Below the pieces are notes generated by a model. That model was not told the origin of the DNA. It ran no database searches and was given only the letters and a program-made list of their open reading frames with translations. Below, piece after piece: positions 10,650-63,934 of a stretch of DNA of 64,000 bases (the stretch's first letter is position 1; every line of letters begins with the position of its first letter). The position numbers and the translations under genes were made by a program. The stretch is from Escherichia phage StefiGeyer_Bas88, in the sequence record PQ850628.1, one strand, 5' to 3'.

Positions 10650-12281
10650 ATGCAACAAACATCTTACGCGTATCTTCGTAGTCAAGACCCGCGAAATCAG
10701 ATTTATGGTGATCGTCAGAGAGGGGTTACGGCCTCTCCTTACATGTCCAGACCTGCTGGTCCAGCAGCTGACTTATCTATGTATCAGCGTCCAGCTCTTC
10801 CTGCTGTCTTAGGAGCTACAGTTGAACAAGCACAGGCTGACCAAGAAGCTATGATGAATCCGGGATTCAAGCAACGTCTTTATGAACAGCAGGGTATTTC
10901 CACTCCTACTAGTTTGGCTGGTATTGATGCTGGCATTAATCCGGGTGATGAAGGCTCTATGATTCCTGCTGATGTAGCTCCTGCTTCTAGCCCTCTTCCG
11001 GTTACAGCTCCTGCTAAACCAATTGAAGAGTCAGATAAAGAGTTTGCCCCTGAACAAGTACAACAGGCACAAGGTGTCATGAATACTATCGCTTCTGGTG
11101 TTCCTCAGGGTGAAGGTATGAGCGGTGCTACTCGTGCTGCTGATCAGGAACGTGTGAATCAGGATATTCTTAAAGTTGCACAATCTAAGAACCCAGCAGA
11201 TGCGTGGAAGACTATGCAGAAACAGCCTTTCTATCAAAACTCTAGTTTCTATACAGGATTGATGGGTGTGGGTCTTTCTATTATGTCTGGTAAATCTCCG
11301 ATTGAGGCATTCCAGATTGGCTCTGGTATGGCATCTCAGGATGAAGCTAAACAACAATTAGAACTGAACCGTGATAACCTGATCGAACAAGGTTACTCTC
11401 AGGATTCTGTAGCTGCTGCTGTAGCTGCTGGTGATCCTTCTCTTCTGAAGATGCGTCAGATTAGTCCTCAAGAGAAGATGGCTCTAGCCGCTCAAGACGA
11501 AGCTCGTGCTAATCAAGAGTGGGACAGACGTCAACAGATTCAAGAGAATTCGATGCGGGAACGTGCTGCTGAAACTCGACGTGCTGCTGAACAACGTGCT
11601 GATGCTCAGTTTGAGAAACAGAAAGAGTTGATTGGTTATCGTGATCAAGTTAAGGCAGACCGTGCAGAACAAGCTGCTCAAAGTTTTAACTTTAACCCGA
11701 AAGAAGTTCGTCTTGCTCAGAACACTGCTGAAGGTACGGTTGCTAAACAGTGGGCAGAGAAGGCAGGACTGTTTAACCAGTCTCATAAAGACTTGGATTT
11801 GGCAGACAAAGCAGTTAAGGATGGTGATTATCAGACTGCTCGTTCTGCTTACATGCAGGCTATTATGAACTCCGCAAGAGCTGAGATTGGTGCTAACCGT
11901 TCTCTGCAAGCTGATGACTTATCACACTTCGCAGAAGACCCATCCATTCTTGTTAAGGTAGGTAACACTTGGTCTCTTAAAGCTGGTTATCGTCCATCTG
12001 ATGCTGCTCTGTCTTATGCTCGTAAACAAGCGACGGTCGGTGCTACTTCTGCTGAGAAAGGTGTTAAAGATTCTAAGAAAGCAACTATTGAAGCTTATGT
12101 TGGTTCTGGTATGGACAAGAAACGTGCAACTGCTCTTGTTAACCGAGCTATTCCTTCTGCTGGTTTCTATGACCCTCTCGGTGTATTCGAAGCAGAGTCT
12201 GAAGCAGCTGTTGGTGGTTCAGCAACCAATCCTAAACTTAACGGTGCTTTGTCTTCTAACACTGATTGGATGACTCAGTAA
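10650..12281 (+). CDS. internal virion protein
   Basis: 543 aa, Ala/Gln/Glu-rich, in the block between the virion transglycosylase and the giant virion protein. Confidence 0.35.
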   Translation: MQQTSYAYLRSQDPRNQIYGDRQRGVTASPYMSRPAGPAADLSMYQRPALPAVLGATVEQAQADQEAMMNPGFKQRLYEQQGISTPTSLAGIDAGINPGDEGSMIPADVAPASSPLPVTAPAKPIEESDKEFAPEQVQQAQGVMNTIASGVPQGEGMSGATRAADQERVNQDILKVAQSKNPADAWKTMQKQPFYQNSSFYTGLMGVGLSIMSGKSPIEAFQIGSGMASQDEAKQQLELNRDNLIEQGYSQDSVAAAVAAGDPSLLKMRQISPQEKMALAAQDEARANQEWDRRQQIQENSMRERAAETRRAAEQRADAQFEKQKELIGYRDQVKADRAEQAAQSFNFNPKEVRLAQNTAEGTVAKQWAEKAGLFNQSHKDLDLADKAVKDGDYQTARSAYMQAIMNSARAEIGANRSLQADDLSHFAEDPSILVKVGNTWSLKAGYRPSDAALSYARKQATVGATSAEKGVKDSKKATIEAYVGSGMDKKRATALVNRAIPSAGFYDPLGVFEAESEAAVGGSATNPKLNGALSSNTDWMTQ

Positions 12282-12300
12282 GACCTAAGTCCTATCTCTT

Positions 12301-12312
12301 ATAATGTATATA
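12301..12312 (+). promoter_or_regulatory. phage-specific promoter-like motif TAATGTATATA
   Basis: Motif about 35 nt upstream of the 12347 ATG; same motif recurs in gene-matching orientation at 21691, 21762, 27855 and 32887. Confidence 0.3.
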
Positions 12313-12346: not shown

Positions 12347-15300
12347 ATGGCTAACTTAAAACCGTGGGAAGAAGCTTCTAAAAGCCCTGCGTATTTGAAT
12401 GCCTCCCCTGAGCAACAGTCTCAGATGCGAGAACAGTATAAAGCAGCGGGTGGAACGATTCCTGAGGCTGCTCCAGCTCCTAAACAAGAAGAGCAACCGG
12501 GGTTGGTTGGTGATTTTGCCCAAGGTGTGTCCAACGCTATTCAATCAGGTGGTGCAAACATTGCAGCTAGTGCTGCTAGAGGTATTGGTGGATTAGTTGA
12601 GATTGGAGAAAATCTAGCTGGTACACAGACAAGTTACGGTAAGCGTATTCAAGACAACTCTAAAAACTTACTAGAAGAACGTCTCTCTCAAATCGAAGAT
12701 GGTGTAGGTAAATCTGTAGGTCAGTATGCTGGCGTTGCCGCTGATATTGGTCTTACGGTTGCTAACCCAGCTGTAGCTGCTGCTGTTATTGCAGCTCGTG
12801 AAACAGGTAGAGCTTATGCAGACCAAACTCCAGAAGAGGGTGAAGAGAAGTCTGTTCTTGATGCTGGTTTAGTTGGTGGTGCTAACTTTGCAGCTCAGAA
12901 GATTCTTCCGGGGATGACAGGCACTGCTTCTACTACTCTAGGTCGTGTTGGTCAGAGTGTAGCATCTAACGCAGTGGCTGGTGCTAAAGGTGGTGCTCTT
13001 GTAGGTGCTGCTGAAGCACAGAACAAATATGGTGATGACACTACTCTTGCTAATATTATTGAAGGTGCTGTAGAAGAAGGTGCGATGGGTGCTGCTTACG
13101 GTGGGGCTATTGGTGGGGTTCATGGATTGATAAGTCGTCCTAGTCCTCAAGTCTTTGACCGTACTCCAGAACACGTTAAGACTGACATTGCCGCTGAAGA
13201 TGAAGCTATTCGCTCAGCTAAAAATGCAGACGAACTAAGAGAGGCTTACTCTAAAGCTGATAATGCTAACACAGCTTCTGCTCTTAATCTCCTCGATGAG
13301 AACGGTTTCCGTGTTACTGATGCTGTGGCTATGGACTCTCCTGCTGCTCAGCGTATCCTTAATACTGATCAAAGTCGTGCTGAGAAGGCTGCTACTATTC
13401 TGGAAGATCGTTCTAATGTTCCTGGTTTAAATCCTCTTGCTGCTCCTAATAAGAAGCAAGGTAAAGCTAACGCAGACAACGAACATAACCAGAAACAAGC
13501 TGTGGCAATGAAAGATGCAATGGCTGATTATACAAAAGACAACACTAAATCTTTGTCTGATGTTCTGGATAATCTTGATCGTGAATTAACAGCTGCTCGT
13601 GCCAGTGGTGATTTTACTGGTAGTGCTATGGACATTAAGAATCGTACCCAAGCAGATCGTGATTTTATTGATGCTTATAAGACTTTCTATAACGAAGCTA
13701 ATCGATTCAAAGCTCGTGATGGTGAAGACTTTAATAACTTCATAGAGAAAGCTACAGAGCTTCAGAAACTAGCTGATAATGTATCCCCAGAAATGAAAAC
13801 TGCTATTGGTGGTTTGAAGAAACTTAAAGGAATGCCTGAAGGTTTCAACCCAATCCAAGATGCTTTCACTCTGAATAACACAGCTAAGTTGATGAGTAAT
13901 CAAGACCGTGGTTGGACTTCTCTGACTGCTGATGGTTTTAAAGAAGCTGCTCCTCCAGTTCTGATTAAGAATCCTCTTGGTGCTGCTAAGCATGTTCTTA
14001 ACCGTTTCCGTTCTGACCGTGCTCGCTCTCAACGTGAAAGCCAGCAGGCTGCTAACAGTGAAGCTATTCGTTCTCTTGCTCGTAGTGATATGGAAGTAAC
14101 TCGTGCTCGTGCTCAGGCTGATGAAGCCCGTGCTGCGATGGAGAAAGAACCTGAAGTTGATGACATTAAATTTAAGACTCAAAATGACATGGAAATCGAA
14201 CCGGTTCGGGAGCCTTCTGCTACTACTGTGACGGAAGAAATTTCCTCTCCAGAAACCTCTCCTTTAACTGCTCGTGATTTGGTCGCACAGAGACGTGCTT
14301 TGAAGGAAGCTGAAGCTAGACGTCAAGAAGCCGAAGCTAACAAGGTTCAGGAAGAACCAACTCCAGAGCCAGTTCCACAAGAACCAGTTACTACCGCAAG
14401 GGATTTAGTTGCCCAGCGTCGTGCTGTTGCAGAAGCTCGTAAACGTCAAGAAGCAGAAGAGGCTAGCAAGGCTGCTGAGAGCGTTCCTGAGGAGCCTATC
14501 GTTCAAGCCGAGCCATTACCTACCCGTGCTCCTAAAGCTCCTGAGGTTGAGCCTGAGCCTGTTAAACCAGCTACTGGAATAGAGCGTCTGGCTGCTATGT
14601 CAAGTGCTGCCCGTCAAGCTACTAAAGATCGTGCAGATCGCTTTGCTCGTTCTCTGTATACGGCAGGTGCTAAGGCTAAAGCCACAGCTGAGAACTTCCT
14701 TTCTTATAAAGGTGACCCGAAAGAGTTGATGCGTCGTATCCGTCAGGAAGACCAAGCCAACAATGCTGAACGTCATGCTGAGATGGCTCGTAATCAACTT
14801 GCTTCTCAACAGGGTATTGCTGCTGCTAAGTCACAACGTGTTCGTTCTTCGTTTGCTGATTGGGTTAAGGAACGTGGTCTACCTTCTGATATTGCTACCA
14901 AGGCATTACGTGCTGAGGAGAAAGGTATTGGTGGGAACGTGACTAGTCTAGACTCACTGAAGCGTAGGTCTGAACGTCTGTATCAGAAACAACGTGATGA
15001 TGAATTTAATAGGATGTATGAAGAAGCTCTTGCAGAGAATAAGAAGCTTGATAAAGCTGATGCTCCTAAGCTGGTTGACCAGAAGAAAGAGTTACACAGC
15101 GAAATCAATTTACTTCTTGATGCAGAGCCATTACGTCCAGCTCAAAAAGATGCTATGCGTAAGTTGATGGAAGACTTTGTAGATGGGAAGTTTAAAGCTT
15201 CAGAGAAGGCTGGAAGGGAAGATGCTTTGGAAGTGGGACAGATGAAGGATATATGGGATGGCTTCATTAACACATATAACCGTGAAGTTAACATGTTCAA

Positions 15301-16765
15301 CAAAGCTAATAAGAACTCTCAGTACGAAGCAGCAGCTAAACATTTGCAAGCACGTCAAGAACGTCTTGAGACGCTCCGTAACAGGGCTAAAGCTCGTAGT
15401 GATGCCAAGGCAGCAATAGAGACAGAAAGACAGTCTCTCGAGGCTATAGCGGCTCAGAAATCGGAGATGGAGAACCTGTTGAAAGATTTACCAGAGTCGG
15501 TACGTGAGTCTCAGGAAGGTCGTACACTGAAACAGTTAGCAGCTCACCACGATAAGAACTCTCCTGTACCACCGGAGCGTTTCCGTAGTATTATCGAACG
15601 TATCCACAACGCAGAAAGTGATTACATTGACCGTAAGCGTCGTCTCACTGAAGCGGAAGAAGATGCTCGAGAAGCTAAGTGGAATAAGATGTACGAACAG
15701 GCGGAAGAGATGAACCGTAAATACGACATTGATTCCCGTGTACAACGTGACAAGAAGCTCAAAGAAGCTCAGGAAGCAGAGAACGATCGCATGGCAATAC
15801 AACGCCAACGTGATGACATTCATAAGCGCCTGATGCGTTCTATGGAGGATAAAGGGATTCCTAAAGAAGATGCAGAAGTCTTTGCAGGTTCTTATATGGA
15901 TAACCGTTACTCTCTTCTGGAGAAACCTATGACTCCTACTGAGCACCAGAATGCTCGTTCTCGTATTGAATCTGATATTTCAAAGTTTGCTAAGGATTTT
16001 GAGAAGATGACACCTATCGAGAAAGATATTGCTAAGGCAACTGGTGACATGGATGGTAAGGTAGAGGTGGATGCAGATACTTCGAAAGCTATCGAAGATG
16101 CGAAGAAGGTAGATTCTGAGTTGAAGAAACTTCAGGATGAAGAGTTGGAAATGGAGAAAGTTCGTTCGGCATTGCCAGAAGATGAAAGATCTCAAGCCTC
16201 CTCTGATATACTGGAAAGCATTAAGAAGCAGGAAGATGACTTTGCTAACAAAGCAGAGAAAGCTTTTATCGAAGGGAAAGACTTGCAGGAGCTGGCTAGT
16301 GTAGCAGAGGTTCTAGATAGAGTTCATGGTGCTGACAAGGCTGGTAACAATCGTCGCTTTGTACGTGCATTACAAACTGCTGCGGAGAACAAGAAACAAT
16401 ATGGAGATAATCCAGTGGCTTGGTTTAGTGCTGATGATTACTCTGCTATTGCGAAACTTGGTGCTGCTTCAGCGGGTGGTAACAAATCTAGAGCACTGGA
16501 GAAAATCTTTGGTTCTACTGCTGAACAAGCTAAAGGGAAACTTTTAGGGCGGGATGATGTAGCGAAGATTAGACGTGTGATTGAAGAGAATCCTGATGTT
16601 AAGATTCCTTCTTACAAGACAACTACTCGACAAGAGTATTTACAGTTCTTGGAGAAGTATAATGACGAGGGAGAATTGAAAGTCAAACGTGGTTCTCTGT
16701 CTGACAAGTTGGAGAGGAGTAAGCGTCAAGCTAAACTCCGTGTTAGAGTTCGAGCTAAGGAGTAA
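12347..16765 (+). CDS. giant internal virion/ejection protein with charged coiled-coil core
   Basis: 1472 aa; long E/K/R/A-rich helical region; internal protein repeat TARDLVAQRRA(L/V)..EA..RQEAE; Pro/Glu linker. Confidence 0.45.
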   Translation: MANLKPWEEASKSPAYLNASPEQQSQMREQYKAAGGTIPEAAPAPKQEEQPGLVGDFAQGVSNAIQSGGANIAASAARGIGGLVEIGENLAGTQTSYGKRIQDNSKNLLEERLSQIEDGVGKSVGQYAGVAADIGLTVANPAVAAAVIAARETGRAYADQTPEEGEEKSVLDAGLVGGANFAAQKILPGMTGTASTTLGRVGQSVASNAVAGAKGGALVGAAEAQNKYGDDTTLANIIEGAVEEGAMGAAYGGAIGGVHGLISRPSPQVFDRTPEHVKTDIAAEDEAIRSAKNADELREAYSKADNANTASALNLLDENGFRVTDAVAMDSPAAQRILNTDQSRAEKAATILEDRSNVPGLNPLAAPNKKQGKANADNEHNQKQAVAMKDAMADYTKDNTKSLSDVLDNLDRELTAARASGDFTGSAMDIKNRTQADRDFIDAYKTFYNEANRFKARDGEDFNNFIEKATELQKLADNVSPEMKTAIGGLKKLKGMPEGFNPIQDAFTLNNTAKLMSNQDRGWTSLTADGFKEAAPPVLIKNPLGAAKHVLNRFRSDRARSQRESQQAANSEAIRSLARSDMEVTRARAQADEARAAMEKEPEVDDIKFKTQNDMEIEPVREPSATTVTEEISSPETSPLTARDLVAQRRALKEAEARRQEAEANKVQEEPTPEPVPQEPVTTARDLVAQRRAVAEARKRQEAEEASKAAESVPEEPIVQAEPLPTRAPKAPEVEPEPVKPATGIERLAAMSSAARQATKDRADRFARSLYTAGAKAKATAENFLSYKGDPKELMRRIRQEDQANNAERHAEMARNQLASQQGIAAAKSQRVRSSFADWVKERGLPSDIATKALRAEEKGIGGNVTSLDSLKRRSERLYQKQRDDEFNRMYEEALAENKKLDKADAPKLVDQKKELHSEINLLLDAEPLRPAQKDAMRKLMEDFVDGKFKASEKAGREDALEVGQMKDIWDGFINTYNREVNMFNKANKNSQYEAAAKHLQARQERLETLRNRAKARSDAKAAIETERQSLEAIAAQKSEMENLLKDLPESVRESQEGRTLKQLAAHHDKNSPVPPERFRSIIERIHNAESDYIDRKRRLTEAEEDAREAKWNKMYEQAEEMNRKYDIDSRVQRDKKLKEAQEAENDRMAIQRQRDDIHKRLMRSMEDKGIPKEDAEVFAGSYMDNRYSLLEKPMTPTEHQNARSRIESDISKFAKDFEKMTPIEKDIAKATGDMDGKVEVDADTSKAIEDAKKVDSELKKLQDEELEMEKVRSALPEDERSQASSDILESIKKQEDDFANKAEKAFIEGKDLQELASVAEVLDRVHGADKAGNNRRFVRALQTAAENKKQYGDNPVAWFSADDYSAIAKLGAASAGGNKSRALEKIFGSTAEQAKGKLLGRDDVAKIRRVIEENPDVKIPSYKTTTRQEYLQFLEKYNDEGELKVKRGSLSDKLERSKRQAKLRVRVRAKE

Positions 16766-18855: not shown

Positions 18856-19444
18856 AGAGACCTCTCCGTGTCCCTTCAATAATCCACTCCAAATCCTCCA
18901 CTGCCTCTTCTACAGAACGGTCATTAAAGAGGAGGTAGGTTGGTAGGTTTGTTCCTTCAATATAAGAACGGGAGTCCCCTTCAAAGGAGCATCCATCTCG
19001 GAGAATCTGAACTACTCGAACATGGAAACGTTTTTCCAGTTCTTCAACTTCTGCTTTAAACCCACCATCAGAGAATACAATAACATCATTCTGTGTTGGG
19101 ATGCGTTGTTGAATACTGCTAACAGCAAGTTTACCCATGCAGGTATCACCAAACATTGGTTTCAGGTAGTTCTCACTAGTCGCAATCATTAAATCTCGAA
19201 CTGTCTTACCGCCCCATTCAGGACGGCTATATTCTTTCCACTCACGGTCGTTGTATAGCTCCATGAACTCATAAAGAGGAAGTCCTAATGCAGCAGCAGC
19301 CACTCGATACATAGGCTCCTTAAAAGCCTTTACATGCGGTCTAAACTCAGTGTTACCGACGGTCTTCTCTAACCAAGCATTAGCGATTGTATCTTTACCA
19401 CAACCCGGTGGTCCATTCAGAATTACTACTAATGGTTTACTCAT
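18848..19444 (-). CDS. deoxynucleoside monophosphate kinase (T4 gp1-like)
   Basis: P-loop NGPPGCGKDT, the GKDT variant typical of phage dNMP kinases; start overlaps the sigma-factor stop (TAATG). Confidence 0.55.
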   Translation of the reverse strand: MSKPLVVILNGPPGCGKDTIANAWLEKTVGNTEFRPHVKAFKEPMYRVAAAALGLPLYEFMELYNDREWKEYSRPEWGGKTVRDLMIATSENYLKPMFGDTCMGKLAVSSIQQRIPTQNDVIVFSDGGFKAEVEELEKRFHVRVVQILRDGCSFEGDSRSYIEGTNLPTYLLFNDRSVEEAVEDLEWIIEGTRRGLYV

Positions 19445-20094
19445 TATTGAATCATCCCTTGAAGATCTTCTTTATCAAAGTGCTTCTCTACTACAGCTTC
19501 ATACAGATCACGATTCTCTGCATATCGGCGATAGAAGGTTCCGTGTGAAATTCCTAACTGCTGCTGAATATGATCATGAGGTATTCCAAGGAAGAGCATA
19601 GAGAACATGCTTGCCATTTTCTTGGTATCCATAATATCACTTAAGTCTTGGAAGAAGAAAAAGATTCTAGATTCCAAGAATGGGTCTCCAGTAGAGTCAT
19701 GCTTATCCATCGCAATCTCTAAAGGACTTTCCCATGAGTTCATCTCAGGGGGTCTAAACATATCAGCCTCTGGAATAGAGTAGATACGTCGGTCTCCAAC
19801 TGTCTGACGGTTAGAACGAATTGACCAGATGATATTCTTAACACGATAAGTCATGTGTTCAATATCTTTTTCATCAGTGAGCAGAAGTTCTTCTTGCTTT
19901 GCAAACACAAAACGCCAAGCGTTCAGTAACACTTCCTGAGCAACATCCTCTGCTTCGTGATAATCTTTAATGTCATACATAAAATAGCGATGCACAACTT
20001 TCCAATTCTCTCGATAGAATTCATCGAAGGTTGGATAATATTTAATAGGAATGCCATGAATACGATAGCGTGTGGGTGTTGTCTTCTTCTTCAT
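19444..20094 (-). CDS. phage-encoded sigma factor (sigma70-family, ECF-like size)
   Basis: [14 protein letters not shown] resembles sigma region 2.2; C-terminal [20 protein letters not shown] resembles region 4.2 helix-turn-helix. Confidence 0.5.
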
Positions 20095-20118: not shown

Positions 20119-20343
20119 TTAAACTACACAGAACAAATACATTGCTGTGTCAGGACAAGGGATGGCTGTCTGAATACCACTTACCTTAATCCACATATCT
20201 TCTTCAGGGTCGTAATAGGCCCAATAGGATTGATCTCCATCTACAAAGAATTTAAAAGTTCGTCCCCAAACCTGATTATTATATTCCCATACTGCATGAA
20301 GTTGAGTAACACCTTCTGGTATTGTAAGTTCCGCTCTGATCAT
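20119..20343 (-). CDS. hypothetical protein
   Basis: 74-aa ORF with ATGA overlap to the o-spanin stop. Confidence 0.3.
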   Translation of the reverse strand: MIRAELTIPEGVTQLHAVWEYNNQVWGRTFKFFVDGDQSYWAYYDPEEDMWIKVSGIQTAIPCPDTAMYLFCVV

Positions 20344-20843: not shown

Positions 20844-20868
20844 CGAAAAAAGCCACCCGAAGGTGGCT
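20844..20868 (-). terminator. rho-independent terminator (- strand)
   Basis: AGCCACC-UUCG-GGUGGCU followed by UUUUUU on the - strand transcript. Confidence 0.55.
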
Positions 20869-20891: not shown

Positions 20892-21632
20892 TTAGAAAGG
20901 GCTGTCATCTTCTTCAAAGGTAGATTGCGGCTCTTCATTAATAGTAGGGATACTTGGAGTCGCGTCTTTCTGTTCAGTGTCAGAAGCGCGAGTAACTTCA
21001 CGACCAGCCAGAGGAATGTTTTTAGCATCATTAGCTTGGGTCAGGAGGTTACGTTGGAATGGGAACATAGCTTGATAAGCAGCCAAGTTAGCGTCAGTTT
21101 CAGCATACGGTTCGAAGAAGATCAACTCACTACGAGGAGCACCTACAGCATCACGATACTTAGTTGGGATGGGGGTGATGCTCTTGATAGAGTTTTTCTT
21201 CTCACCAGCTTTGTTGGTGTAAGAATTAACCAGAATGTTGACAGGCTGACCAAGCAGCATATCTTTGAACCAACCCAAATCACCTTTCAGTGCTTGAACA
21301 CTTGGGTCGATCATTTTAATTAGGTTCAGAATACCAGAGTTCTTAGCTCGTGGGTTTACATCGAAGGATTTAAACTGACAAGCAGGACGTGGGTCCAATG
21401 CCTTACCATCATTATCTGTACCAGTCGCGTCAACACCAATCAGTTCAAATGCCAAGTCCATACGGAAAGCGGGGTTCTTAGGAGTAACTGCTTTGGTCTT
21501 AGGGTCAATCCAAGGGTCACGATTGTGAACACCTAAACCTACTACACGAACAATGCGTGCTTCGTACTCGCCATCAGGGATTACATCGTAGTTGGATTTA
21601 CGGGATACAGACAGTTCAGGGATCATAGACAT
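20892..21632 (-). CDS. single-stranded DNA-binding protein candidate with acidic SSB-like C-terminal tail
   Basis: 246 aa ending FEEDDSPF, resembling the DDDIPF tail of SSBs; AAGGAA RBS. Confidence 0.35.
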   Translation of the reverse strand: MSMIPELSVSRKSNYDVIPDGEYEARIVRVVGLGVHNRDPWIDPKTKAVTPKNPAFRMDLAFELIGVDATGTDNDGKALDPRPACQFKSFDVNPRAKNSGILNLIKMIDPSVQALKGDLGWFKDMLLGQPVNILVNSYTNKAGEKKNSIKSITPIPTKYRDAVGAPRSELIFFEPYAETDANLAAYQAMFPFQRNLLTQANDAKNIPLAGREVTRASDTEQKDATPSIPTINEEPQSTFEEDDSPF

Positions 21633-21690
21633 ATTAATATTTCCTTATATAAATTTAAGATTGTTGCTCTCTTTGAGCGGTTGGTATACT

Positions 21691-21701
21691 ATATACATTA
21701 C
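21691..21701 (-). promoter_or_regulatory. phage promoter-like motif (GTAATGTATAT) facing SSB-like gene
   Basis: Motif on - strand about 60 nt upstream of the 21632 start. Confidence 0.3.
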
Positions 21702-21761
21702 ACCTATACAGATAAGGTTCTATTATACTATAACCTTTTTGGTAGTAGATAACAGTAAGTA

Positions 21762-21774
21762 GTAATGTATATAT
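21762..21774 (+). promoter_or_regulatory. inverted copy of promoter-like motif
   Basis: GTAATGTATATAT on + strand, forming an inverted pair with 21691..21701. Confidence 0.25.
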
Positions 21775-21974
21775 GGTATAGCTAGTAAAGCTATTGCAGG
21801 CTTGTATATTGGGCAATCATCGTAACCCTTGCAAGTACCGAAGGGCAGGAGACACCTGCGAGATAAAAATAGAGAATTAAGGAAACCCTTGATTTAGGTT
21901 GAGGACTCCTAGGACTTTGATTCTCTATTAAAATCAAAAGAAAACTAATTAACTTAACTTAAAAACAATAACTT

Positions 21975-27505: not shown

Positions 27506-27820
27506 TTAACTTGAGCTTAAAGCTCCTTTGCGACCGCCTGCTGATTTTCCAGCACGATCTCCACTTTTGCCGCCGTTCGAGCGATTTCCAGAGACTGATT
27601 CAACACGTAAGTTACTTGACGCATTAGAACCTCCCGACTTGATTGATCGTTTATGTCCAACATCTTTACCTCGGACAGCAGCTTTTCCATCGCGCTTTTC
27701 AACGATGCGACGTGCACGGTGGCGCTGAGCATCTCCGCTCTTGCTACCAACGCCGGTTTCACCCCTTGCGATTGCAGTTCTTCGTTCTTGTGCATAATCA
27801 CGTTTTGCCTTATCAGTCAT
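27506..27820 (-). CDS. basic Gly/Lys/Arg-rich small protein (stress-protein-like low complexity)
   Basis: Strong AAGGAG RBS before ATG; promoter-like motif upstream; an overlapping alternative frame (27517..27801) lacks an RBS. Confidence 0.35.
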   Translation of the reverse strand: MTDKAKRDYAQERRTAIARGETGVGSKSGDAQRHRARRIVEKRDGKAAVRGKDVGHKRSIKSGGSNASSNLRVESVSGNRSNGGKSGDRAGKSAGGRKGALSSS

Positions 27821-27854
27821 CATAACTCCTTAATATATCAGTGTACACTAAGGA

Positions 27855-27864
27855 GTATACATTA
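27855..27864 (-). promoter_or_regulatory. phage promoter-like motif TAATGTATAC
   Basis: Between PhoH stop and next gene start, - strand orientation. Confidence 0.3.
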
Positions 27865-31962: not shown

Positions 31963-32529
31963 TTAGTAAGACACGTCACCACTAGAGTGGGACATGTTGC
32001 TCTTGACGAAGTAACAGAACTTGCCAAGACCTTCATTAATTTCTTGAAGCATACTCTGGTCTACTGGATAGGTGCACAAGTCTGAATCAAACTCGTCCAT
32101 CTTTTCAATGATACACATCAGAGTCATGCACATGTCGGAAAGCATACCGTCCATGTCGAGATCAGCACTACCTTCTCTGAACCAAGCACAACTAAGATAG
32201 CTACTAGCTGTTGCATCCACTTTGATACAGTGATAACGCATTCGCTCAGCTACTCGGTCTCCTGTTTCACGAGCATAGTCTTCTAATTCATCGAACATAC
32301 CATGAACACCTTGGAAACCAGCTCCAGAGACGTTCCAGTGGTAATTCTTTGCTTTGATGTGTAGAAGCTCAAGGTTAGCCTGCACACCGCATAGGATGTG
32401 CTCTAGACTGTTACCGCTGATCAGTTTATTCATTCCCTCAAGACGAGAGATAGAGGAGTCAGTTGTAGAGAATGGGTTACTAGAACCCACTCGTGTTAGT
32501 TCAGGTAAGTCGAAGACATTATTATGCAT
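31963..32529 (-). CDS. Dps-like ferritin-fold protein
   Basis: LELLHIKAKNYHWNVSGAGFQGVHGMFDELEDYARETGDRVAERM aligns to the Dps ferroxidase region, with the His, His, Asp and Glu ligand positions present. Confidence 0.55.
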   Translation of the reverse strand: MHNNVFDLPELTRVGSSNPFSTTDSSISRLEGMNKLISGNSLEHILCGVQANLELLHIKAKNYHWNVSGAGFQGVHGMFDELEDYARETGDRVAERMRYHCIKVDATASSYLSCAWFREGSADLDMDGMLSDMCMTLMCIIEKMDEFDSDLCTYPVDQSMLQEINEGLGKFCYFVKSNMSHSSGDVSY

Positions 32530-32869
32530 TAGGAGTCTCTCCTTCTAAGTTAGTTGAATTAGCCACATTACGAGCAATGTTATCCATGACCTGCTGTGTA
32601 ATAACAATGCAATTCTGAGGGTCTACTGATTTAGAACGCCCCATTTCAGGGTCATAGACTTTGACTCGCTTGGCTGTTGAGCCAGTAACTTGCAACACTT
32701 TGAGAAGATAACCTTGATTTCCAATAGACCATGCAACAACATCACGATTCTTGATATAACGACCAAGCATATCACGATGATAGAACTGCTGCATAACTTT
32801 AGCTTTGCTAATCTCTTCAGATGGCGGGGCCACTTTACTCAAATCTAACATAACTCTCTCCTGTTTCAT
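32522..32869 (-). CDS. hypothetical protein
   Basis: 115-aa ORF; promoter-like motif immediately upstream. Confidence 0.35.
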   Translation of the reverse strand: MKQERVMLDLSKVAPPSEEISKAKVMQQFYHRDMLGRYIKNRDVVAWSIGNQGYLLKVLQVTGSTAKRVKVYDPEMGRSKSVDPQNCIVITQQVMDNIARNVANSTNLEGETPNA

Positions 32870-32886
32870 ACAATATTCTTATACTG

Positions 32887-32896
32887 TATATACATT
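32887..32896 (-). promoter_or_regulatory. phage promoter-like motif AATGTATATA
   Basis: Intergenic, - strand, 17 nt upstream of the 32869 ATG. Confidence 0.25.
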
Positions 32897-32921
32897 TGAG
32901 AGTTATCATATCTACTACCAA

Positions 32922-38564: not shown

Positions 38565-38750
38565 TTATTCTACTTCGAAGTGTTTGATCACACCAGTCAA
38601 TACATCAGATTGGAACGTACCTACTAACTCTGCGCCTCGGAAGAAATTGACATTTGTTCCAAGTGTTTCAAAGCGTTCTGCTTGAATGTCCAGAGATTGA
38701 ATATTCCCTTCTGAGTTTACTGTACGAAACATGATTGTGTATTTATTCAC
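38565..38750 (-). CDS. hypothetical protein
   Basis: 61-aa ORF. Confidence 0.25.
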   Translation of the reverse strand: MNKYTIMFRTVNSEGNIQSLDIQAERFETLGTNVNFFRGAELVGTFQSDVLTGVIKHFEVE

Positions 38751-38989
38751 AGAGTTGTTACTCCCTTATCTTCTTGTGCAATTGCGATGATACGCTCAAC
38801 ACATTCCATTGAATATTTATCACCTCGTTTAAGGAAGGTGACAATTGCAGAGAACTGATTACCAATCATTCTCTTGTTTGTGATTCCAAACTCTTCACAG
38901 AGTTGGTTAATAGCTTTACGAGAACCAACAATCAGAGGTTCTTTTTGTTCGGTCATTCCACGACTGATCAAATCTTCGATAGACAACAT
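38747..38989 (-). CDS. hypothetical protein
   Basis: 80-aa ORF. Confidence 0.3.
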   Translation of the reverse strand: MLSIEDLISRGMTEQKEPLIVGSRKAINQLCEEFGITNKRMIGNQFSAIVTFLKRGDKYSMECVERIIAIAQEDKGVTTL

Positions 38990-51443: not shown

Positions 51444-51520
51444 TGGTGCACCCTACAGGATTCGAACCTGTAACCAACGACTTAGAAGGTCGCTGCTCTG
51501 TCCAATTGAGCTAAGGGTGC
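51444..51520 (-). tRNA. tRNA-Arg(UCU): tRNA-Arg, anticodon UCU, CCA encoded
   Basis: Folded by hand: acceptor GCACCCU/AGGGUGC, D-stem GCUC/GAGC, anticodon stem GCGAC/GUCGU with loop CUUCUAA, T-arm ACAGG-UUCGAAU-CCUGU, 3' ACCA. Confidence 0.85.
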
Positions 51521-57522: not shown

Positions 57523-58435
57523 GATAATTTACCTTTTAATTAAAACGCTCTATGCGCCGCTCTCTATGAGCTATTCAAGTCACAATGACTTAACACTAAT
57601 CACTAACTATTAGTAACCAGTGGTAAATCAGGCGGACTTATCAGGAGTTAACCTTGCCGCCTAACTTGCCGTGATGTTTCATCTGGTATCTTTAATTAGT
57701 CGCTATAAACTAAGCCGACCTGATAGCGATGATCAATCATCACAATAAGGCAGTGTGCCCGACTCTAATTAGTTACTTTATTGTAACCGTCGGTAATATC
57801 GTTTACTTTGCTTTCGCTCCCGCCTATCCTTTTATACCAACTCTCAATCGCTAACCATCGCCCACTACGGGAGGTTATTGCGAAAGAGTCATTAGCCGCC
57901 TGATACATTGACGTTTTATATCTTTCAGCAGGTTTACTACATAAACTGATTATGTACGCCATCAATAGTGGCCTCAAATCATTCACTTCGTAAACGTTCA
58001 CACTAAACCTTATTGTTAAATAGCAATTTGCCACTTTTTAACCACTCCCCGCCGCTCTCAATTGAGCGTTAATTAGTCGGACTTGTCTACCCTGATTAAC
58101 TTCTTTCACCGTAGCGCCTTGTTAGCGATGACCGCCGCTACCCTTAACCGTGGGCGATTAGCTTAAGTCTTTGCGTGCACTCGATGAATCCGCTTATCAG
58201 TGGTGACGTTTCCAGTAAGGGATTGTAAAACTGTTTACCCTGATAATTTAGGGAGTTTTACGCCGTTTTATCTGGTATACTTTCCGATGGTTATTATCAT
58301 CAAGTATATTTAACCGATATAGGAGAATGTTTAAATTGTTAAAGAGCGGTAAATCTATCAACGTGCTTTCTCACGTTATGCAACTGTTAGCCGTTGTTAC
58401 GCTGTTCACTTAGCGGTGACTTGCTTAGTGAGTGC

Positions 58436-58468
58436 TCATTATGAATCATCTCGTTTAGCGTGTCAACC
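58436..58468 (-). promoter_or_regulatory. sigma70-like promoter P1
   Basis: - strand reads A-tract, TTGACA, 17-nt spacer, CATAAT. Confidence 0.5.
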
Positions 58469-58604
58469 ACTTTTTTAAATCTTTTTCTCGTCTATTCTTT
58501 CGAATGACCAGTTAATCACGTATTGGATTAACAAGATTGTAAGCGGTTGCGCTTAACTTTCTGATTCATATTTTTAAAGAGCGGTGTTTCTTACTGCTTA
58601 GTGA

Positions 58605-58637
58605 ACATTCTATCAGAGTGTTTCACCTTGTCAACTC
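58605..58637 (-). promoter_or_regulatory. sigma70-like promoter P2
   Basis: - strand reads A-tract, TTGACA, 16-17-nt spacer, TAGAAT. Confidence 0.45.
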
Positions 58638-58836
58638 TTTTTATCATCTTCTTTTATTCTATTCCCTTATCTCGCTTGAATCTTTGCGAAAGGGCAAGAT
58701 GATAAATTGTTAAAGAGCGTTAAGTCTATCGCCGTCTTCCTCGGCGTCATGCCTTGAGTGTTCCCACTCCTTCCAGTTTAAGCCTTTTTACATGATGCTA
58801 ATCATCTATCTGGAAGTGTTCTGTACTGCTGAGATC

Positions 58837-58868
58837 ACATCTTATCATAATGATTCGACGTGTCAACA
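58837..58868 (-). promoter_or_regulatory. sigma70-like promoter P3
   Basis: - strand reads A-tract, TTGACA, then a weaker -10 (TAAGAT). Confidence 0.35.
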
Positions 58869-58926
58869 ATCTTTTTCGATTAATGTATCTTGATAAACTA
58901 GCGACCAGTAAGGCCGCTAACCTATC

Positions 58927-59127: not shown

Positions 59128-59627
59128 TGATAAATCCTCATTATGGCATGGTTGGGAGTTTATCAAGATACACTAATCGAGTTTTTAAAGAGCTAGTAAA
59201 CAAAGTTTGCCTTGAGAGAATCTAGTACACTGTTAAACGCTGATTTCTTTGAAGTATCGACCTTATAGGCCGCTAAATCCACGCATGGAAGAAGAATCGA
59301 CTAGGATAATCAACTAAGTGCCTTATAGTAATGACGCTTGTTAGCACCACTCCTAAGCAAACCTTGTTTTTAAAGAGCAAGGCTAAAAGTCTAGCCTATC
59401 AGGCTTGCTACCGACTGCATAACTAAACCTGAGATTCAAATATAAATCTATCAAGCAAAGAAAGCAATACCTTTTTCTAAAATAATTTCACTTTCTTTTA
59501 GGTATAGATGAGCACGCGCACGAATAACATCAAGGGAGGAAGAAAACAAGCATTATAATCAAAAGCTAGGCATGTAGGAGGCGTTCTAACGAGATAAACA
59601 GGGGCAAGATGTGCAATCACCTTAGAA

Positions 59628-61221: not shown

Positions 61222-61399
61222 TAATCCTTTCGGTTGATGTGAACTACAAACTACAATCGCAACTATATATTAAAGGAAAAACTTGTCAACCACTTATTTT
61301 CAAACTATTTCATAACTCACTGAATTTAAAAGGAATTTAATTTACTAAACTTTCTTACTCAGAGGTACAGCTTACTGACAGAATGTTACTTTATAACAC

Positions 61400-61510
61400 T
61401 AATAGAACGGGTAGCAGACCAACGGGATAGATAGATGGGTAAGACGTGCCGCATAGGTTAGCCAATGGGTAAGAAGCCTAACGAGGAAGGGGAAACGGGT
61501 AGGGTATAAT
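61400..61510. repeat. iteron-like array I, (A/C)(A/T)GGGTAG
   Basis: ACGGGTAG, GATGGGTAAG, AATGGGTAAG, ACGGGTAGGG within about 100 bp. Confidence 0.55.
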
Positions 61511-61559
61511 GTAAGTTAGTTACAGATGACAGACCAGACCATGCGGGAGTTAATTACCA

Positions 61560-61850
61560 GTCAAATAATTTACTCAAACAACTAAAAGAAAAAGAATAAA
61601 GACACGCTGAAAAAGAAACAGACCTAAAAGATAAAGATTAACATAATCATTAAAAGAAACTATTAACCAGTCTAATGATACATACATCAATAATCCACTC
61701 ATGAAACATTAACATAAGTTATCACTATTAAACTTGGGGGATTGTGTGAATGCTTATAGTTGCATGGTGTTACTAGTAGTTATCATAGGTTATCATTAGC
61801 CTGATCATAGTCACTATTATAGCCCCTTAACAGAGTCTAGCCTTTCATCC
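61560..61850. repeat. A-tract-rich region with TTATCA boxes
   Basis: AAAAGAAAAAG...AAAAAGAAACAG...AAAAGATAAAG runs, then GTTATCACTATT, AGTTATCATAGG, GGTTATCATTAG. Confidence 0.35.
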
Positions 61851-61869
61851 CTTCTCAATATGAGTAAGA

Positions 61870-61980
61870 GAAATACGGGTGGGAAATCACTGGTTAGATA
61901 TACATGGGTAGATAATCAATGTCTAATATTAATGGGTAGTGTATTTATGGGTAGGCATGCCACTGATAGCAGGTAGGGCA
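61870..61980. repeat. iteron-like array II
   Basis: ACGGGTGGG, CATGGGTAGA, AATGGGTAGT, TATGGGTAGG, AGGTAGGG. Confidence 0.55.
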
Positions 61981-62178
61981 AGGCTTAGAGCTTAAAGGCG
62001 ATGTGATTCTGTACAGGCGATTGCATCGGTAATAACCCTTTTTTAAATGAGGACTCCCCCTTTTACCAAAACGCGCTCGGAGGGGCTAGGTCCACTCGGT
62101 CAAATCAGAATTTTAAACCCTTATATATAACTATATGCCCCAACGTTAGTTGTGGATTTAAGAGTGAGGAACAACTTT

Positions 62179-62488: not shown

Positions 62489-62755
62489 ATGATTCTAGAC
62501 TTTTTATCAGAGTTACTTCCTTTCTTCCGCACTGAGACATGTGCATTCAAAGTTGAAGAAGATGGGGACTTTGAAGTAATAACTTGTTTGGGTAGATTAG
62601 TAGACCTAGATGACGATGAAGATTTTGATGCTACGATGGACATTAGTTCATTGGGCTGGTTGTACATGAGATGCTTTGTGAGTTACAAGGCTGAGACGTT
62701 TAAAGATTATCGTTATAGTGATAACGTAAATACTGAAGGAGAGAATGATGAATAA
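62489..62755 (+). CDS. small acidic protein
   Basis: GAGGAG RBS; Asp/Glu-rich 88 aa. Confidence 0.4.
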   Translation: MILDFLSELLPFFRTETCAFKVEEDGDFEVITCLGRLVDLDDDEDFDATMDISSLGWLYMRCFVSYKAETFKDYRYSDNVNTEGENDE

Positions 62756-63401
62756 TATGACAGGAACTACTACACTGAATGCAATCTATGAGAACATGGG
62801 ATGTAAAGGCGAGGTTGTTTACAATGGTAATCTCCGTCCTTTATCAGAGGACATTCTCTATCTGAATCGTGTTCATGAAACTACTGGAGGTAAATCCCAA
62901 GTTGAGATGGTAAAACAACTGGCTCATGGTTCTGTGTATGGTTATGCTCCTTCAACCCGTGAATTGTGGGAAGGTTTGATTCCTAGTACAGAAGCGAAAG
63001 ATGTGAAAGATTATTTCACTGTAGCAAAAGAAGTTAAACGCAAGTGTCCATCCAATCTAGAAGTTGTTCCGTATGTAGCTGACAAACATGCACACCTACC
63101 GGATTATGCCCGTGAGATGATTGAGATGATAGAAGAAGCCGAGTATGAAGCTCTGAATAATTATTTAAATTCAAAAGATCAATGGTCACGTAATGTAGTA
63201 ATTGATGAAGAAGGTAATGAAGTAGTTACGTGGGTACATGCTAGTGAACAAGCTCTGGACCCCGAGCTTGAAGAATACAAAAAATTTTTGGCGTCCTCTT
63301 CTTTTGATGTAGAGAATGACAAATCTGTTCCAGTGACTTGGGAAGGTGAAACTGTAGCTCTCCAGACTTTGTTCAACCTGCACGTAGGTAATGTAGATTA
63401 A
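62745..63401 (+). CDS. hypothetical protein
   Basis: 218-aa ORF with RBS; followed by a terminator. Confidence 0.4.
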   Translation: MMNNMTGTTTLNAIYENMGCKGEVVYNGNLRPLSEDILYLNRVHETTGGKSQVEMVKQLAHGSVYGYAPSTRELWEGLIPSTEAKDVKDYFTVAKEVKRKCPSNLEVVPYVADKHAHLPDYAREMIEMIEEAEYEALNNYLNSKDQWSRNVVIDEEGNEVVTWVHASEQALDPELEEYKKFLASSSFDVENDKSVPVTWEGETVALQTLFNLHVGNVD

Positions 63402-63410
63402 TAAAAGGTG

Positions 63411-63438
63411 TTGCCTCCTCTAGTGGGAGGCTTTTTGT
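63411..63438 (+). terminator. rho-independent terminator (+ strand)
   Basis: GCCTCC-TCTAGTG-GGAGGC followed by TTTTTGTT. Confidence 0.5.
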
Positions 63439-63466
63439 TATAACGATAATGTAGAAGGAGTATAAG

Positions 63467-63934
63467 ATGTTTGGAGAAAAAGGAGAACTCACGCCTGCAC
63501 AGGTAGCTGAGGTTACAGGAAGATTACCCGGTGTAACTGATGAATTGGAAAACCGTGGTATGGAGCCAAGCACAGGGAAGTTCCAAAAGGGAAATAAGTT
63601 CGGACGACCCAAAGGTAGTAGAGGTAAGTTGACACAGCTCATGTTGGACCGAGTTGCTGCAAGTCATCTGTCCCCTGATGAAGTGTTGATTCAAATTTAT
63701 GAAGATCCAAATATTCCACCTGATCTTAGATTCAAGGCTGCAAGTAAAGTTGCAGATCTGGTATATCCGAAGGCAGCTTCTGTTGAGATTAAGATTGAGG
63801 AAGAGAATGTAATTAATGAAGATTCACTGAACGCACAAATCAAGGACTTCTTGGCTGGAGCATTAGGTGCAGATGTGCTACCTCCAGAGGACTCTGAGGA
63901 CGCTGAAAAGGAGGAGGAAGCGGACGAGAGTTAA
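63467..63934 (+). CDS. possible small terminase subunit-like protein (GRPKG motif), acidic C-terminus
   Basis: KFQKGNKFGRPKGSRGK resembles a basic motif I recall in small packaging proteins; AAGGAG RBS. Confidence 0.3.
   Translation: MFGEKGELTPAQVAEVTGRLPGVTDELENRGMEPSTGKFQKGNKFGRPKGSRGKLTQLMLDRVAASHLSPDEVLIQIYEDPNIPPDLRFKAASKVADLVYPKAASVEIKIEEENVINEDSLNAQIKDFLAGALGADVLPPEDSEDAEKEEEADES

Follow-up and report, generated by a model that had tools for sequence, protein, structure and literature searches.

By homology, the 64,000-nucleotide stretch of Escherichia phage StefiGeyer_Bas88 analysed here (PQ850628.1; hereafter, the window) is that of a phiEco32-like coliphage (Gordonclarkvirinae), and its sigma gene and promoter system are those of the gp36 strategy already published for phiEco32. 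Sequence comparison makes it nearly certain that the open reading frame at 19444-20094(-) encodes a gp36-type sigma factor, that the five motif sites matched below to mapped phiEco32 promoters are its promoters, and that a homolog of phiEco32 gp79 is its co-activator. What we computed is the homology, the conservation of contact residues, the enrichment of the motif, and the orthology both of the sites and of the genes that follow them; core binding, the specificity for promoters, timing and gp79-dependent activation would carry over from the work on phiEco32, whose sigma homolog is 81% identical. The main finding is a confirmation of the published strategy and adds no new biology to it; for the annotation of this genome, five promoters, their predicted starts and two transcription factors can now be named. 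The sole new lead is an inverted, divergent copy of the motif, which may drive an undescribed small RNA.

A total of 98 phiEco32-like records matched the window, the best at 97%. Compared with phiEco32 itself, the phage belongs to another lineage, with TH34 and ECBP2 (Suseptimavirus-like) as its nearest relatives; the DNA identity to phiEco32 is about 78-87% in the genes compared, and the genome layout is alike.

The sigma factor gene occupies 19444..20094 on the minus strand and encodes the 216-aa protein listed in the initial annotation. This protein is 81% identical to phi32_36 (gp36) over 215 aa (E 3e-136) and matches both the chain of gp36 solved on RNA polymerase (PDB 9m7y_F, E 4.9e-119) and PHROG 1740 ‘RNA polymerase sigma factor’ (E 2.9e-44), the homology to gp36 being full-length, as in a phage sigma factor of the PHROG 1740 type. 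All 15 of the clamp, -10 and -35 contact residues listed for gp36 (PMC12276001) are the same in this protein, namely: D44, E47, E49, D50 and E54; E79, H80, Y83, R84, W90, S91, S94 and N95; and gp36 Y186/R187, which correspond to Y188/R189 here. In addition, 4 of 5 flap-tip residues and 4 of 4 residues of the gp79 groove are identical. Compared with gp36, the linker carries a 2-aa insertion, and the gene immediately upstream of the sigma gene is a different one from that in phiEco32. The sigma factor of ECBP2 is 99% identical to the one described here. The neighbours of the gene are a dNMP kinase-like gene and small spanin-like open reading frames.

Segments resembling sigma regions 2 and 4 had been noticed in the protein from its sequence, and a profile search for both had been proposed. 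The structural part of this claim agrees with the cryo-EM structure of gp36, which has sigma2-like and sigma4-like folds, with rearrangements (PMC12276001). The profile search bears it out weakly for region 2, where Pfam Sigma70_r2 (PF04542) scores 20.3 bits, below its cut-off of 24, over residues 26-61, and does not bear it out for region 4, as Sigma70_r4 gives no match in the protein even at E up to 10. TIGR02937 (sigma70-ECF) scores 21.2 against a cut-off of 42.9, with residues 23-191 aligned. Since the curated sigma-70 profiles score under their cut-offs, the assignment rests on the homology to gp36. The sub-threshold sigma-profile matches fall at the expected place in the protein.

These low scores, together with a weak match to a TetR_N-type helix-turn-helix at residues 176-201, could be taken to mean that the open reading frame encodes a helix-turn-helix regulator and that the motif is a site of another regulator or of the sigma70 type; the SU10 paper does propose sigma70 promoters that overlap middle promoters. 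We regard this reading as extremely improbable. The 81%-identical gp36 has been solved on RNA polymerase and a promoter with this very motif, mutation of its contact residues or of the contacted bases compromised or abolished transcription (PMC12276001), and all of these contact residues are identical in the protein encoded here.

The assignment of a gp36-type sigma factor also fits the motif. What defines the promoters of the gp36 holoenzyme is the element tAATGTAtA, and transcription begins 6-8 nt beyond it (PMC8948821); six of them have been mapped, upstream of phiEco32 genes 6, 13, 26, 40, 58 and 68, with P6 listed as TAATGTAgA (PMC8948821, Table S3). For ECBP2, equivalents of all six are predicted in the literature. 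The initial annotation had linked the motif, with some uncertainty, to a sigma-dependent promoter class of phiEco32-type phages with a similar motif; the 81%-identical gp36 ortholog and the published tAATGTAtA element show that this link was right. In the window, WAATGTATAY occurs five times, at 12302(+), 21691(-), 21763(+), 27855(-) and 32888(-), each within 0-1 nt of where it had been noted before. Dinucleotide-preserving shuffles contain 0.63 ± 0.77 copies; none of the 100 had as many as five. A weight matrix trained solely on the six phiEco32 promoter sequences finds seven sites at a cut-off of ≥ 13 bits, versus 1.1 ± 1.0 in simulated windows (maximum 5 in 300).

Comparison with the homologous, annotated genome of phiEco32 shows the five copies to be intergenic, and four of them, as previously noted, are oriented with the adjoining downstream gene, the motif ending 32-59 nt ahead of the start codon. 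The term ‘intergenic’ is taken here from the orthologous annotation because a crude open reading frame mask placed three of the promoter sites in spurious short open reading frames. These four sites had been proposed as promoters of the phage sigma factor, and they do precede the orthologs of phiEco32 genes 26, 40, 58 and 68. With the addition of a variant site, the sites and their flanks correspond one-to-one to phiEco32 P6, P26, P40, P58 and P68, and the downstream proteins are 79-93% identical, while P13 lies beyond the window.

The equivalent of the late promoter P26 is an exact motif, TAATGTATA, at 12302..12310(+), with a predicted start at about 12317, and would drive 12347-16765(+), whose product is 79% identical to phi32_26; its flanks are collinear with phiEco32 26014(+), and the AAGACCTA found at 12280-12287 is common to phiEco32 P13 and P26. 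The equivalents of the middle promoters P40 and P58 have the same TAATGTATA, at 21692..21700(-) and 27856..27864(-), with starts predicted at about 21685 and 27849, respectively. The first, which is invariant in a 10-phage alignment, is placed to drive 20892-21632(-) (85% protein identity to phi32_40), and the second to drive 27506-27823(-) (90% to phi32_58). The equivalent of P68, also a middle promoter, is AAATGTATA at 32889..32897(-), with the same A-for-T variant as phiEco32 P68; its start is predicted at about 32882, and its presumed target, 32522-32851(-), encodes a protein 93% identical to phi32_68. It has the upstream box TTGGTAGTAGATA at 32909-32921, including G at -37 and A at -34. 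P68 is the promoter in the gp36 cryo-EM structure, and the G at -37 is reported to be essential in it (PMC12276001); this G is missing from the equivalents of P26 and P40. The equivalent of the late promoter P6 is TAATGTAGA at 63447..63455(+), with the G variant and flanks of phiEco32 1677(+), a predicted start at about 63462 and a probable target at 63467-63934(+) (91% identity to phi32_6). This site at 63447(+) had been overlooked in the initial annotation. Compared with phiEco32, the window has a second copy of TAATGTAGA, at 63389. Pfam searches gave no matches for the products of genes 40, 58 and 68 and sub-threshold matches only for the gene 6 product and the gp79 homolog.

The homolog of gp79, a protein of 80 aa, is encoded at 38747..38989(-) (80% identity to phi32_79; PHROG 8339, E 6e-51). 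In phiEco32, gp79 is an inhibitor of the sigma70 holoenzyme and a co-activator of the gp36 holoenzyme (PMC12276001), so that the sigma factor and a homolog of its partner are found in the same genome; at the positions in contact with gp36 and RNA polymerase, its residues are either unchanged or replaced conservatively. Neither this homolog nor the contact with the -35 region had been picked up in the earlier reading of the sequence.

The mechanism that we propose takes its steps from the phiEco32 homolog. The gp36 ortholog, a highly diverged sigma factor of two domains, would take the place of sigma70 on the host RNA polymerase core. Its N-terminal sigma2-like domain would bind the clamp helices, read AATGTA (-14 to -9) and open the DNA from -11, while the C-terminal sigma4-like domain would sit on the flap-tip helix and touch the -35 region (G -37 and A -34 in P68). 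Transcription would start about 7 nt past the last base of (T/A)AATGTA(T/G)A. The gp79 homolog is expected to block the sigma70 holoenzyme and stabilise the gp36 open complex, and its action would move transcription from the early to the middle and late genes.

How the sigma gene itself is expressed was also considered. At 20851..20868(-), just 3′ of the gene-40 ortholog and ahead of the sigma gene, there is a terminator-like hairpin, AGCCACCTTCGGGTGGCT followed by T6. This hairpin, which sets the sigma gene apart from P40 and gene 40, had not been mentioned before. It is conserved in phiEco32, and Salmonella phage 7-11 has a counterpart at the equivalent position, where it separates the sigma gene from the gene-40 homolog. 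The idea that the sigma gene is the fifth gene of a P40 operon, with direct positive autoregulation, is weakened by this strong, conserved hairpin after gene 40. A self-promoter was considered as well: CAATGTATT at 20136(-) precedes the start of the sigma gene by 41 nt and has both G at -37 and A at -34. It was rejected, as it sits in Ala-Met-Tyr codons of the upstream gene and a synonymous gca-to-gct change in ECBP2 abolishes AATGTA. The window holds about 14 copies of the shorter string AATGTAT.

The fifth copy of the motif lies in the 340-bp spacer between genes 40 and 41 and points away from gene 40. An extra inverted copy had been reported at 21762; it is real, begins at 21763(+), and turns out to be conserved and complete as a promoter. 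The candidate gp36-type promoter at 21739..21771(+), outside the published list of six, consists of TTGGTAGTAGATA, 11 nt, and TAATGTATA, i.e. the 13-nt box and the spacing of P68 with a perfect -10-like element, and the window holds no exact copies of the box other than these two. Both boxes are kept in 19 of 19 relatives scored (a further relative, YF01, was left out because the extraction pattern failed to match it). Of the 19, 16 have an exact 13-nt box; in the other three, which are myPSH2311-type sequences, 2 of the last 5 box bases differ and GGTA at -37..-34 is retained. The sequence between the boxes varies, while its length is constant at 11 nt. The phiEco32 equivalent is at 36704(+). 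The promoter is absent from the 7-11 subgroup, in which the spacer measures only 103 nt. A literature search for phiEco32 and antisense gave nothing relevant; an earlier description in the primary phiEco32 papers is possible.

Downstream of this site, conservation and folding point to a candidate structured non-coding RNA at 21778..21935(+). It has a 5′ hairpin (21778-21794) that starts exactly at the predicted +1, a second hairpin (21846-21858) and a long 3′ hairpin (21869-21928), all on the plus strand. The 173 nt downstream of the promoter are 93.6% identical to phiEco32, compared to 78-87% for the neighbouring coding sequences, and on this measure the candidate RNA is apparently the best-conserved stretch of the region. 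The region is taken to be non-coding because it contains indels of 1-2 nt, which break any reading frame. Thus, P68-type promoter boxes of its own, lack of coding capacity and conservation above that of its neighbours, as looked for in a small RNA, are found together.

The 5′ hairpin is paired in 98.7% of the alignment's cells and shows four double-sided changes, a number reached by 0 of 500 shuffles. G-U pairs are present in 6 of 13 sequences, where the other strand would have A-C mismatches, and the plus strand is therefore favoured for this hairpin. The covariation is based on 13 distinct sequences because wider sampling added little: IMG/VR yielded five loci, mostly from the same isolates, and a metagenome scan with the sigma protein yielded one. 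Folding is more favourable on the plus strand (z = -2.4) than on the minus strand (z = -1.8). The middle module of the candidate RNA is swapped in some lineages (ECBP2, myPSH2311).

From these observations, we suggest that the inverted copy is a seventh gp36-dependent promoter. Transcription from it would start at A21778 and run to ~21930, which would give a non-coding RNA of about 150 nt that is conserved and structured. We hold this reading tentatively, at slightly below an even chance. The promoter part draws on the P68-like box, spacing and motif and on their retention in all relatives scored while the sequence between them varies; the RNA part draws on the conservation, the frame-breaking indels, the position, compensatory changes and G-U pairs of the 5′ hairpin, and the strand bias in folding. 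Several results weigh against it. A scan of the plus strand for intrinsic terminators found no clear one, with merely UU(U) after the 3′ hairpin. The other 41 predicted pairs are invariant or changed on one side only, so for the greater part of the predicted structure covariation gives no evidence either way. Rfam searches of the spacer (E up to 1) and of the whole window (gathering thresholds) returned tRNA-Arg only, and no family for the candidate RNA; the search for complementary targets gave one 12-mer versus 1.2 expected, which is not above chance. The whole element is missing from the 7-11 subgroup. Apart from these points, the candidate RNA had no blastn match in 5,426 E. coli genomes.

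The conservation of the spacer could instead reflect a function as DNA or on the minus strand, which we consider unlikely. Two versions can be envisaged. In one, divergent transcription may activate a replication origin in the spacer, as happens in T7 or at T4 oriF; in the other, the spacer may hold a terminator or a processing element that acts on the minus-strand genes upstream. Under both, the inverted motif would serve as an accessory or as a decoy to which polymerase binds. Read on the minus strand, the long hairpin does have TTTTTAT after it, but the stem beside this T-run is rich in AT, and the hairpin was not among the calls of the terminator scan. The element contains a co-varying direct repeat (AGGACT..AGGACT changing to AGGGACT..AGGGACT), although with just two repeats, as well as an A-rich stretch. 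Origins in T7 and T4 use promoters placed similarly, which speaks for the origin version, while the GC skew, which tracks the direction of transcription alone, speaks against it. For both versions, the G-U pairs and compensatory changes of the 5′ hairpin are evidence to the contrary, as they indicate a plus-strand RNA rather than duplex DNA.

Returning to the reading as a seventh promoter, the predicted RNA would be antiparallel to the neighbouring genes and would have no coding overlap unless there is read-through. Its candidate roles are those of a regulatory small RNA or of a transcript opposing read-through from the upstream gene cluster, and it might act in regulation of the early-to-middle switch or in replication priming. 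That a conserved, unlisted seventh promoter, firing away from gene 40, gives a lytic podophage a small RNA made only after the phage sigma factor appears is a possibility to which we attach a somewhat lower likelihood still. To our knowledge, such RNAs have rarely been characterised in lytic phages. Should the promoter prove active, the published map of six promoters would lack a conserved, sigma-dependent structured RNA of the phiEco32-like phages. Public RNA-seq reads of Kuravirus-infected E. coli, sampled 10 min after infection (BioProject PRJNA1225266; PMC12803456), were aligned to the host only. The candidate promoter could be put to a direct test, since purification and structure determination have already been achieved for the polymerase, sigma factor, co-activator and a promoter that closely matches it.

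Among known systems, the closest is that of phiEco32 gp36 (Pavlova 2012, cited in PMC8948821; Xu 2025, PMC12276001, PDB 9m7y), which uses the same element, including the G in P6 and the A in P68, has its promoters ahead of the same orthologous genes and likewise encodes gp79. Salmonella phage 7-11 also encodes its own sigma factor, gp47, which is only about 15% identical to gp36 (PMC8948821). It shares with the present phage the arrangement of phosphoesterase, gene-40 homolog, terminator-like hairpin, sigma factor and exonuclease, and has a sigma-dependent promoter before the gene-40 homolog, as here. In contrast to the phiEco32-type phages, 7-11 lacks a gp79 homolog and a middle class, its late promoters are bipartite with another sequence, GTAAtg-(16)-aCTA (PMC8948821), and it has no inverted promoter, its 103-nt spacer being too short for the candidate RNA.

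The small layout of a sigma2-like and a sigma4-like domain is held in common with the bacterial ECF (group 4) sigma-70 factors. The weak ECF-model matches extend over residues 23-191, M. tuberculosis SigL is the best non-phage match in the PDB, and GenBank records name the protein ‘ECF sigma factor’, although it misses the curated cut-offs. Unlike ECF promoters, those of the phage are dominated by a single -10-like element with a weakly defined -35 region, and the gp36 structure shows rearrangements of the first helix and of the flap-tip contact (PMC12276001). No anti-sigma partner was seen; the protein has instead a presumed co-activator, the gp79 homolog.

The late sigma factor gp55 of T4 offers a parallel to the gp36 system in that one short -10-like element dominates recognition; unlike for gp55, we know of no coupling of gp36 to a sliding clamp. 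The ‘sigma appropriation’ by T4 AsiA and MotA achieves the same timed redirection of the host polymerase by a phage: as with gp79, a small protein disables region 4 of sigma70 and aids a phage-specified recognition factor, a comparison drawn by the authors of PMC12276001. The proteins of the T4 system are not homologous to those of the phiEco32 type, in which gp36 brings a sigma4-like domain of its own.

The window matches 98 records of phiEco32-like coliphages (Gordonclarkvirinae), the nearest being TH34 (96-97%) and the next ECBP2 (~95%). Its gene order is collinear with that of phiEco32, and it is circularly permuted with respect to the phiEco32 record: by gene-order correspondence it starts inside the late gene cluster, at approximately 13.7 kb of phiEco32, and it ends directly after gene 6. 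A tRNA-Arg gene (anticodon TCT) at 51444-51520(-) matches the one annotated in phiEco32. The early gene cluster opens with large non-coding stretches (58035-58926, 59167-59497 and 61222-62151), and by analogy with the literature on relatives they are probably the region of sigma70 early promoters.

In phiEco32, promoters of the holoenzyme containing the phage sigma factor gp36 carry one conserved element, tAATGTAtA, with transcription starting 6-8 nt downstream, and six have been mapped, upstream of genes 6, 13, 26, 40, 58 and 68 (PMC8948821); PMC4331800 and PMC4281155 give the same account. Table S3 of the former study lists the elements as TAATGTAgA (P6), TAATGTATA (P13, P26, P40 and P58) and aAATGTATA (P68), and predicts the same six promoters in ECBP2 and four other relatives (PMC8948821).

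The initial annotation had proposed a recurrent motif, WAATGTATAY, as the candidate promoter recognised by a phage-encoded sigma factor, and had hesitantly linked it to phiEco32-type promoters. The motif occurs five times, at 12302(+), 21691(-), 21763(+), 27855(-) and 32888(-), so that the coordinates given initially were off by at most one base; in 100 dinucleotide-preserving shuffles the count is 0.63 ± 0.77 and never reaches five. A weight matrix built from the six phiEco32 promoter sequences only (site threshold of at least 13 bits) yields seven sites, vs. 1.1 ± 1.0 (maximum 5) in 300 simulated windows. When the window and phiEco32 were scanned alike, their promoter sites corresponded one-to-one, flanks and site-specific variants included. 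The equivalents of P26 at 12302(+), P40 at 21692(-) and P58 at 27856(-), all TAATGTATA, and of P68 at 32889(-), AAATGTATA, precede proteins that are 79%, 85%, 90% and 93% identical to phi32_26, phi32_40, phi32_58 and phi32_68, respectively. An equivalent of P6, TAATGTAGA at 63447(+), had been missed; its downstream protein is 91% identical to phi32_6. P13 falls outside the window. Given the one-to-one sites and the 79-93% identity of the downstream proteins, the proposed link is correct, the sites matching P26, P40, P58 and P68.

The ORF assigned to the sigma factor, 19444-20094(-), is present and codes for 216 aa. The protein is 81% identical to gp36 over its full length, 100% identical to the TH42 protein and 99% to that of ECBP2, and has matches to chain 9m7y_F of a solved structure (‘RNA polymerase ECF sigma factor’, E 4.9e-119) and to PHROG 1740 (‘RNA polymerase sigma factor’, E 2.9e-44). 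As for the region 2-like and region 4-like segments claimed for it, Sigma70_r2 was placed at residues 26-61 with 20.3 bits, below the cut-off of 24, and Sigma70_r4 gave no match in the profile search. TIGR02937 (sigma70-ECF) scored 21.2, below its cut-off of 42.9, in an alignment spanning residues 23-191. Since the curated sigma-70 profiles stay under cut-off, the assignment rests on homology to gp36 and not on generic profiles; the low scores agree with the description of gp36 in the literature as a distant sigma homolog.

A cryo-EM structure shows gp36, its small partner protein gp79 and promoter P68 in complex with E. coli RNA polymerase (PMC12276001). The N-terminal domain of gp36 is sigma2-like, with D44, E47, E49, D50 and E54 binding the clamp helices; AATGTA is read by E79, H80, Y83, R84, W90, S91, S94 and N95; and in the sigma4-like C-terminal domain R187 and Y186 contact G at -37 and A at -34 (PMC12276001). 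gp79 displaces sigma70 region 4 and stabilises gp36 (PMC12276001). The window protein has the same residue as gp36 at every clamp, -10 and -35 contact (15/15), at four of the five flap-tip positions and at all four gp79-groove positions. The gp79 homolog, at 38747-38989(-), has 80% identity; at the contact positions its residues are either retained or conservatively substituted.

Describing gp36 promoters by a ‘single element’ oversimplifies them. Every site has A at -34, and G at -37 is found at P6, P58, P68 and the inverted copy, i.e. the motif at 21763(+) that diverges from the P40 equivalent in the gene 40/41 spacer, but not at P26 or P40. AAGACCTA, at -38 to -31, is common to P13 (9071-9100) and P26 (25990-26013) of phiEco32 and to the P26 equivalent of the window (12280-12287), while TTGGTAGTAGATA is common to P68 and the inverted copy. 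These boxes, late AAGACCTA vs. middle TTGGTAGTAGATA, might separate middle from late timing. Upstream of the phiEco32 sigma gene, AAGACCTA is fused directly to TAATGTTTA.

The P6-equivalent motif, which starts at 63447(+), ends just 11 nt ahead of the annotated ATG at 63467, an arrangement shared with phiEco32. With transcription beginning 7 nt past the motif, the leader would be ~5 nt long and lack AGGAG. The mRNA of the gene-6 ortholog may be nearly leaderless, or its start codon misplaced. The PHROG 8771 match to this ortholog starts at residue 16. A second TAATGTAGA copy lies at 63389-63397(+), at the 3′ end of ORF 62745-63401, and is separated from the P6-equivalent copy by a terminator-like hairpin (GCCTCCTCTAGTGGGAGGC then T5, 63413-63431); phiEco32 has the P6 copy only. 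At the 5′ end of the gene-68 ortholog (32851-32869(-)), position 32869, where the ORF was mechanically begun, is probably not the true start; the ATG at 32851 is preceded by AGGAGAGAG, and with it the protein begins MLDLSK, like phi32_68.

P40 lies upstream of the sigma gene, with gene 40 and a strong terminator-like hairpin (20851-20868(-), 3′ of gene 40) in between, so that direct autoregulation of sigma through P40 would need read-through. The hairpin is kept in phiEco32 and, by position, in Salmonella phage 7-11, which has the same order of promoter, gene 40, hairpin and sigma. With a gp36 promoter on one side and this hairpin on the other, gene 40 appears to be a single-gene unit with high expression. 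A near-motif at 20136, just upstream of the sigma gene, was rejected as a chance product of Met-Tyr codons. The gene-40 ortholog (20892-21632(-)), for which a Pfam search returned no match, ends in an acidic tail, ...EEDDSPF, which resembles those of single-stranded-DNA-binding proteins. Its 5′ untranslated region (21633-21690(-), AACCGCTCAAAGAGAGCAACAATCTT) does not vary in an alignment of ten phages. A small hairpin can form in it through GCTC/GAGC pairing; at this position phage 7-11 carries a different hairpin, GAAGAG/CTCTTC.

The inverted copy is absent from the published six promoters, and may have been described before; its phiEco32 equivalent is at 36704(+). It consists of TTGGTAGTAGATA, 11 nt and then TAATGTATA, exactly as in P68, and the exact 13-mer TTGGTAGTAGATA occurs in the window at these two places only. 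It is present in 19/19 scorable relatives (one more, YF01, was not captured by the extraction pattern and is outside this count), with both boxes kept and the 13-nt box exact in 16; in three myPSH2311-type sequences, 2 of its last 5 bases differ and GGTA at -37 to -34 is kept. The spacer varies freely in sequence and is constant in length at 11 nt. The 7-11 subgroup lacks this inverted promoter element. In myPSH2311-type phages, an insertion of ~140 bp separates the two divergent promoters.

Together with ~150 nt of conserved non-coding sequence, this putative P68-like promoter defines a candidate sigma-dependent non-coding RNA (21739-21935(+)). Over the 173 nt after the inverted copy, the window and phiEco32 share 93.6% identity, vs. 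78-87% for coding sequences (sigma, gene 40, gp79, gene 58, gene 68 and polymerase), and 1-2 nt indels exclude a coding sequence. By the numbering of the cryo-EM study, +1 would be A21778, with which a 6-bp hairpin (21778-21794) begins. Across 13 distinct sequences 98.7% of the hairpin cells are paired (slid controls, 18-61%), with four double-sided changes, a number reached in 0/500 shuffles. The remaining predicted structure is invariant or varies on one side only, and is hence uninformative. ECBP2, myPSH2311-type phages, EcM-vB1 and a further relative (L014) carry an unrelated middle module of ~67 nt between conserved ends. The main alternative is that the conserved element acts at the DNA level or on the minus strand, as an origin or terminator; in 6 of the 13 sequences, the hairpin contains a G-U pair, which in a transcript of the opposite strand would become an A-C mismatch. 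No Rfam family, similar E. coli sequence, plus-strand terminator after the candidate RNA or complementary target above chance was found. It is plausible, at somewhat short of even odds, that the inverted copy is a seventh gp36 promoter and that a structured RNA is transcribed from it.

The inverted promoter and its downstream structured element are the sole item here that merits experiment. The finding on the sigma factor and its motif is correct and its reading supported, and the system is already characterised in a close relative: the motif-sigma link was previously published for ECBP2, whose sigma factor is 99% identical.
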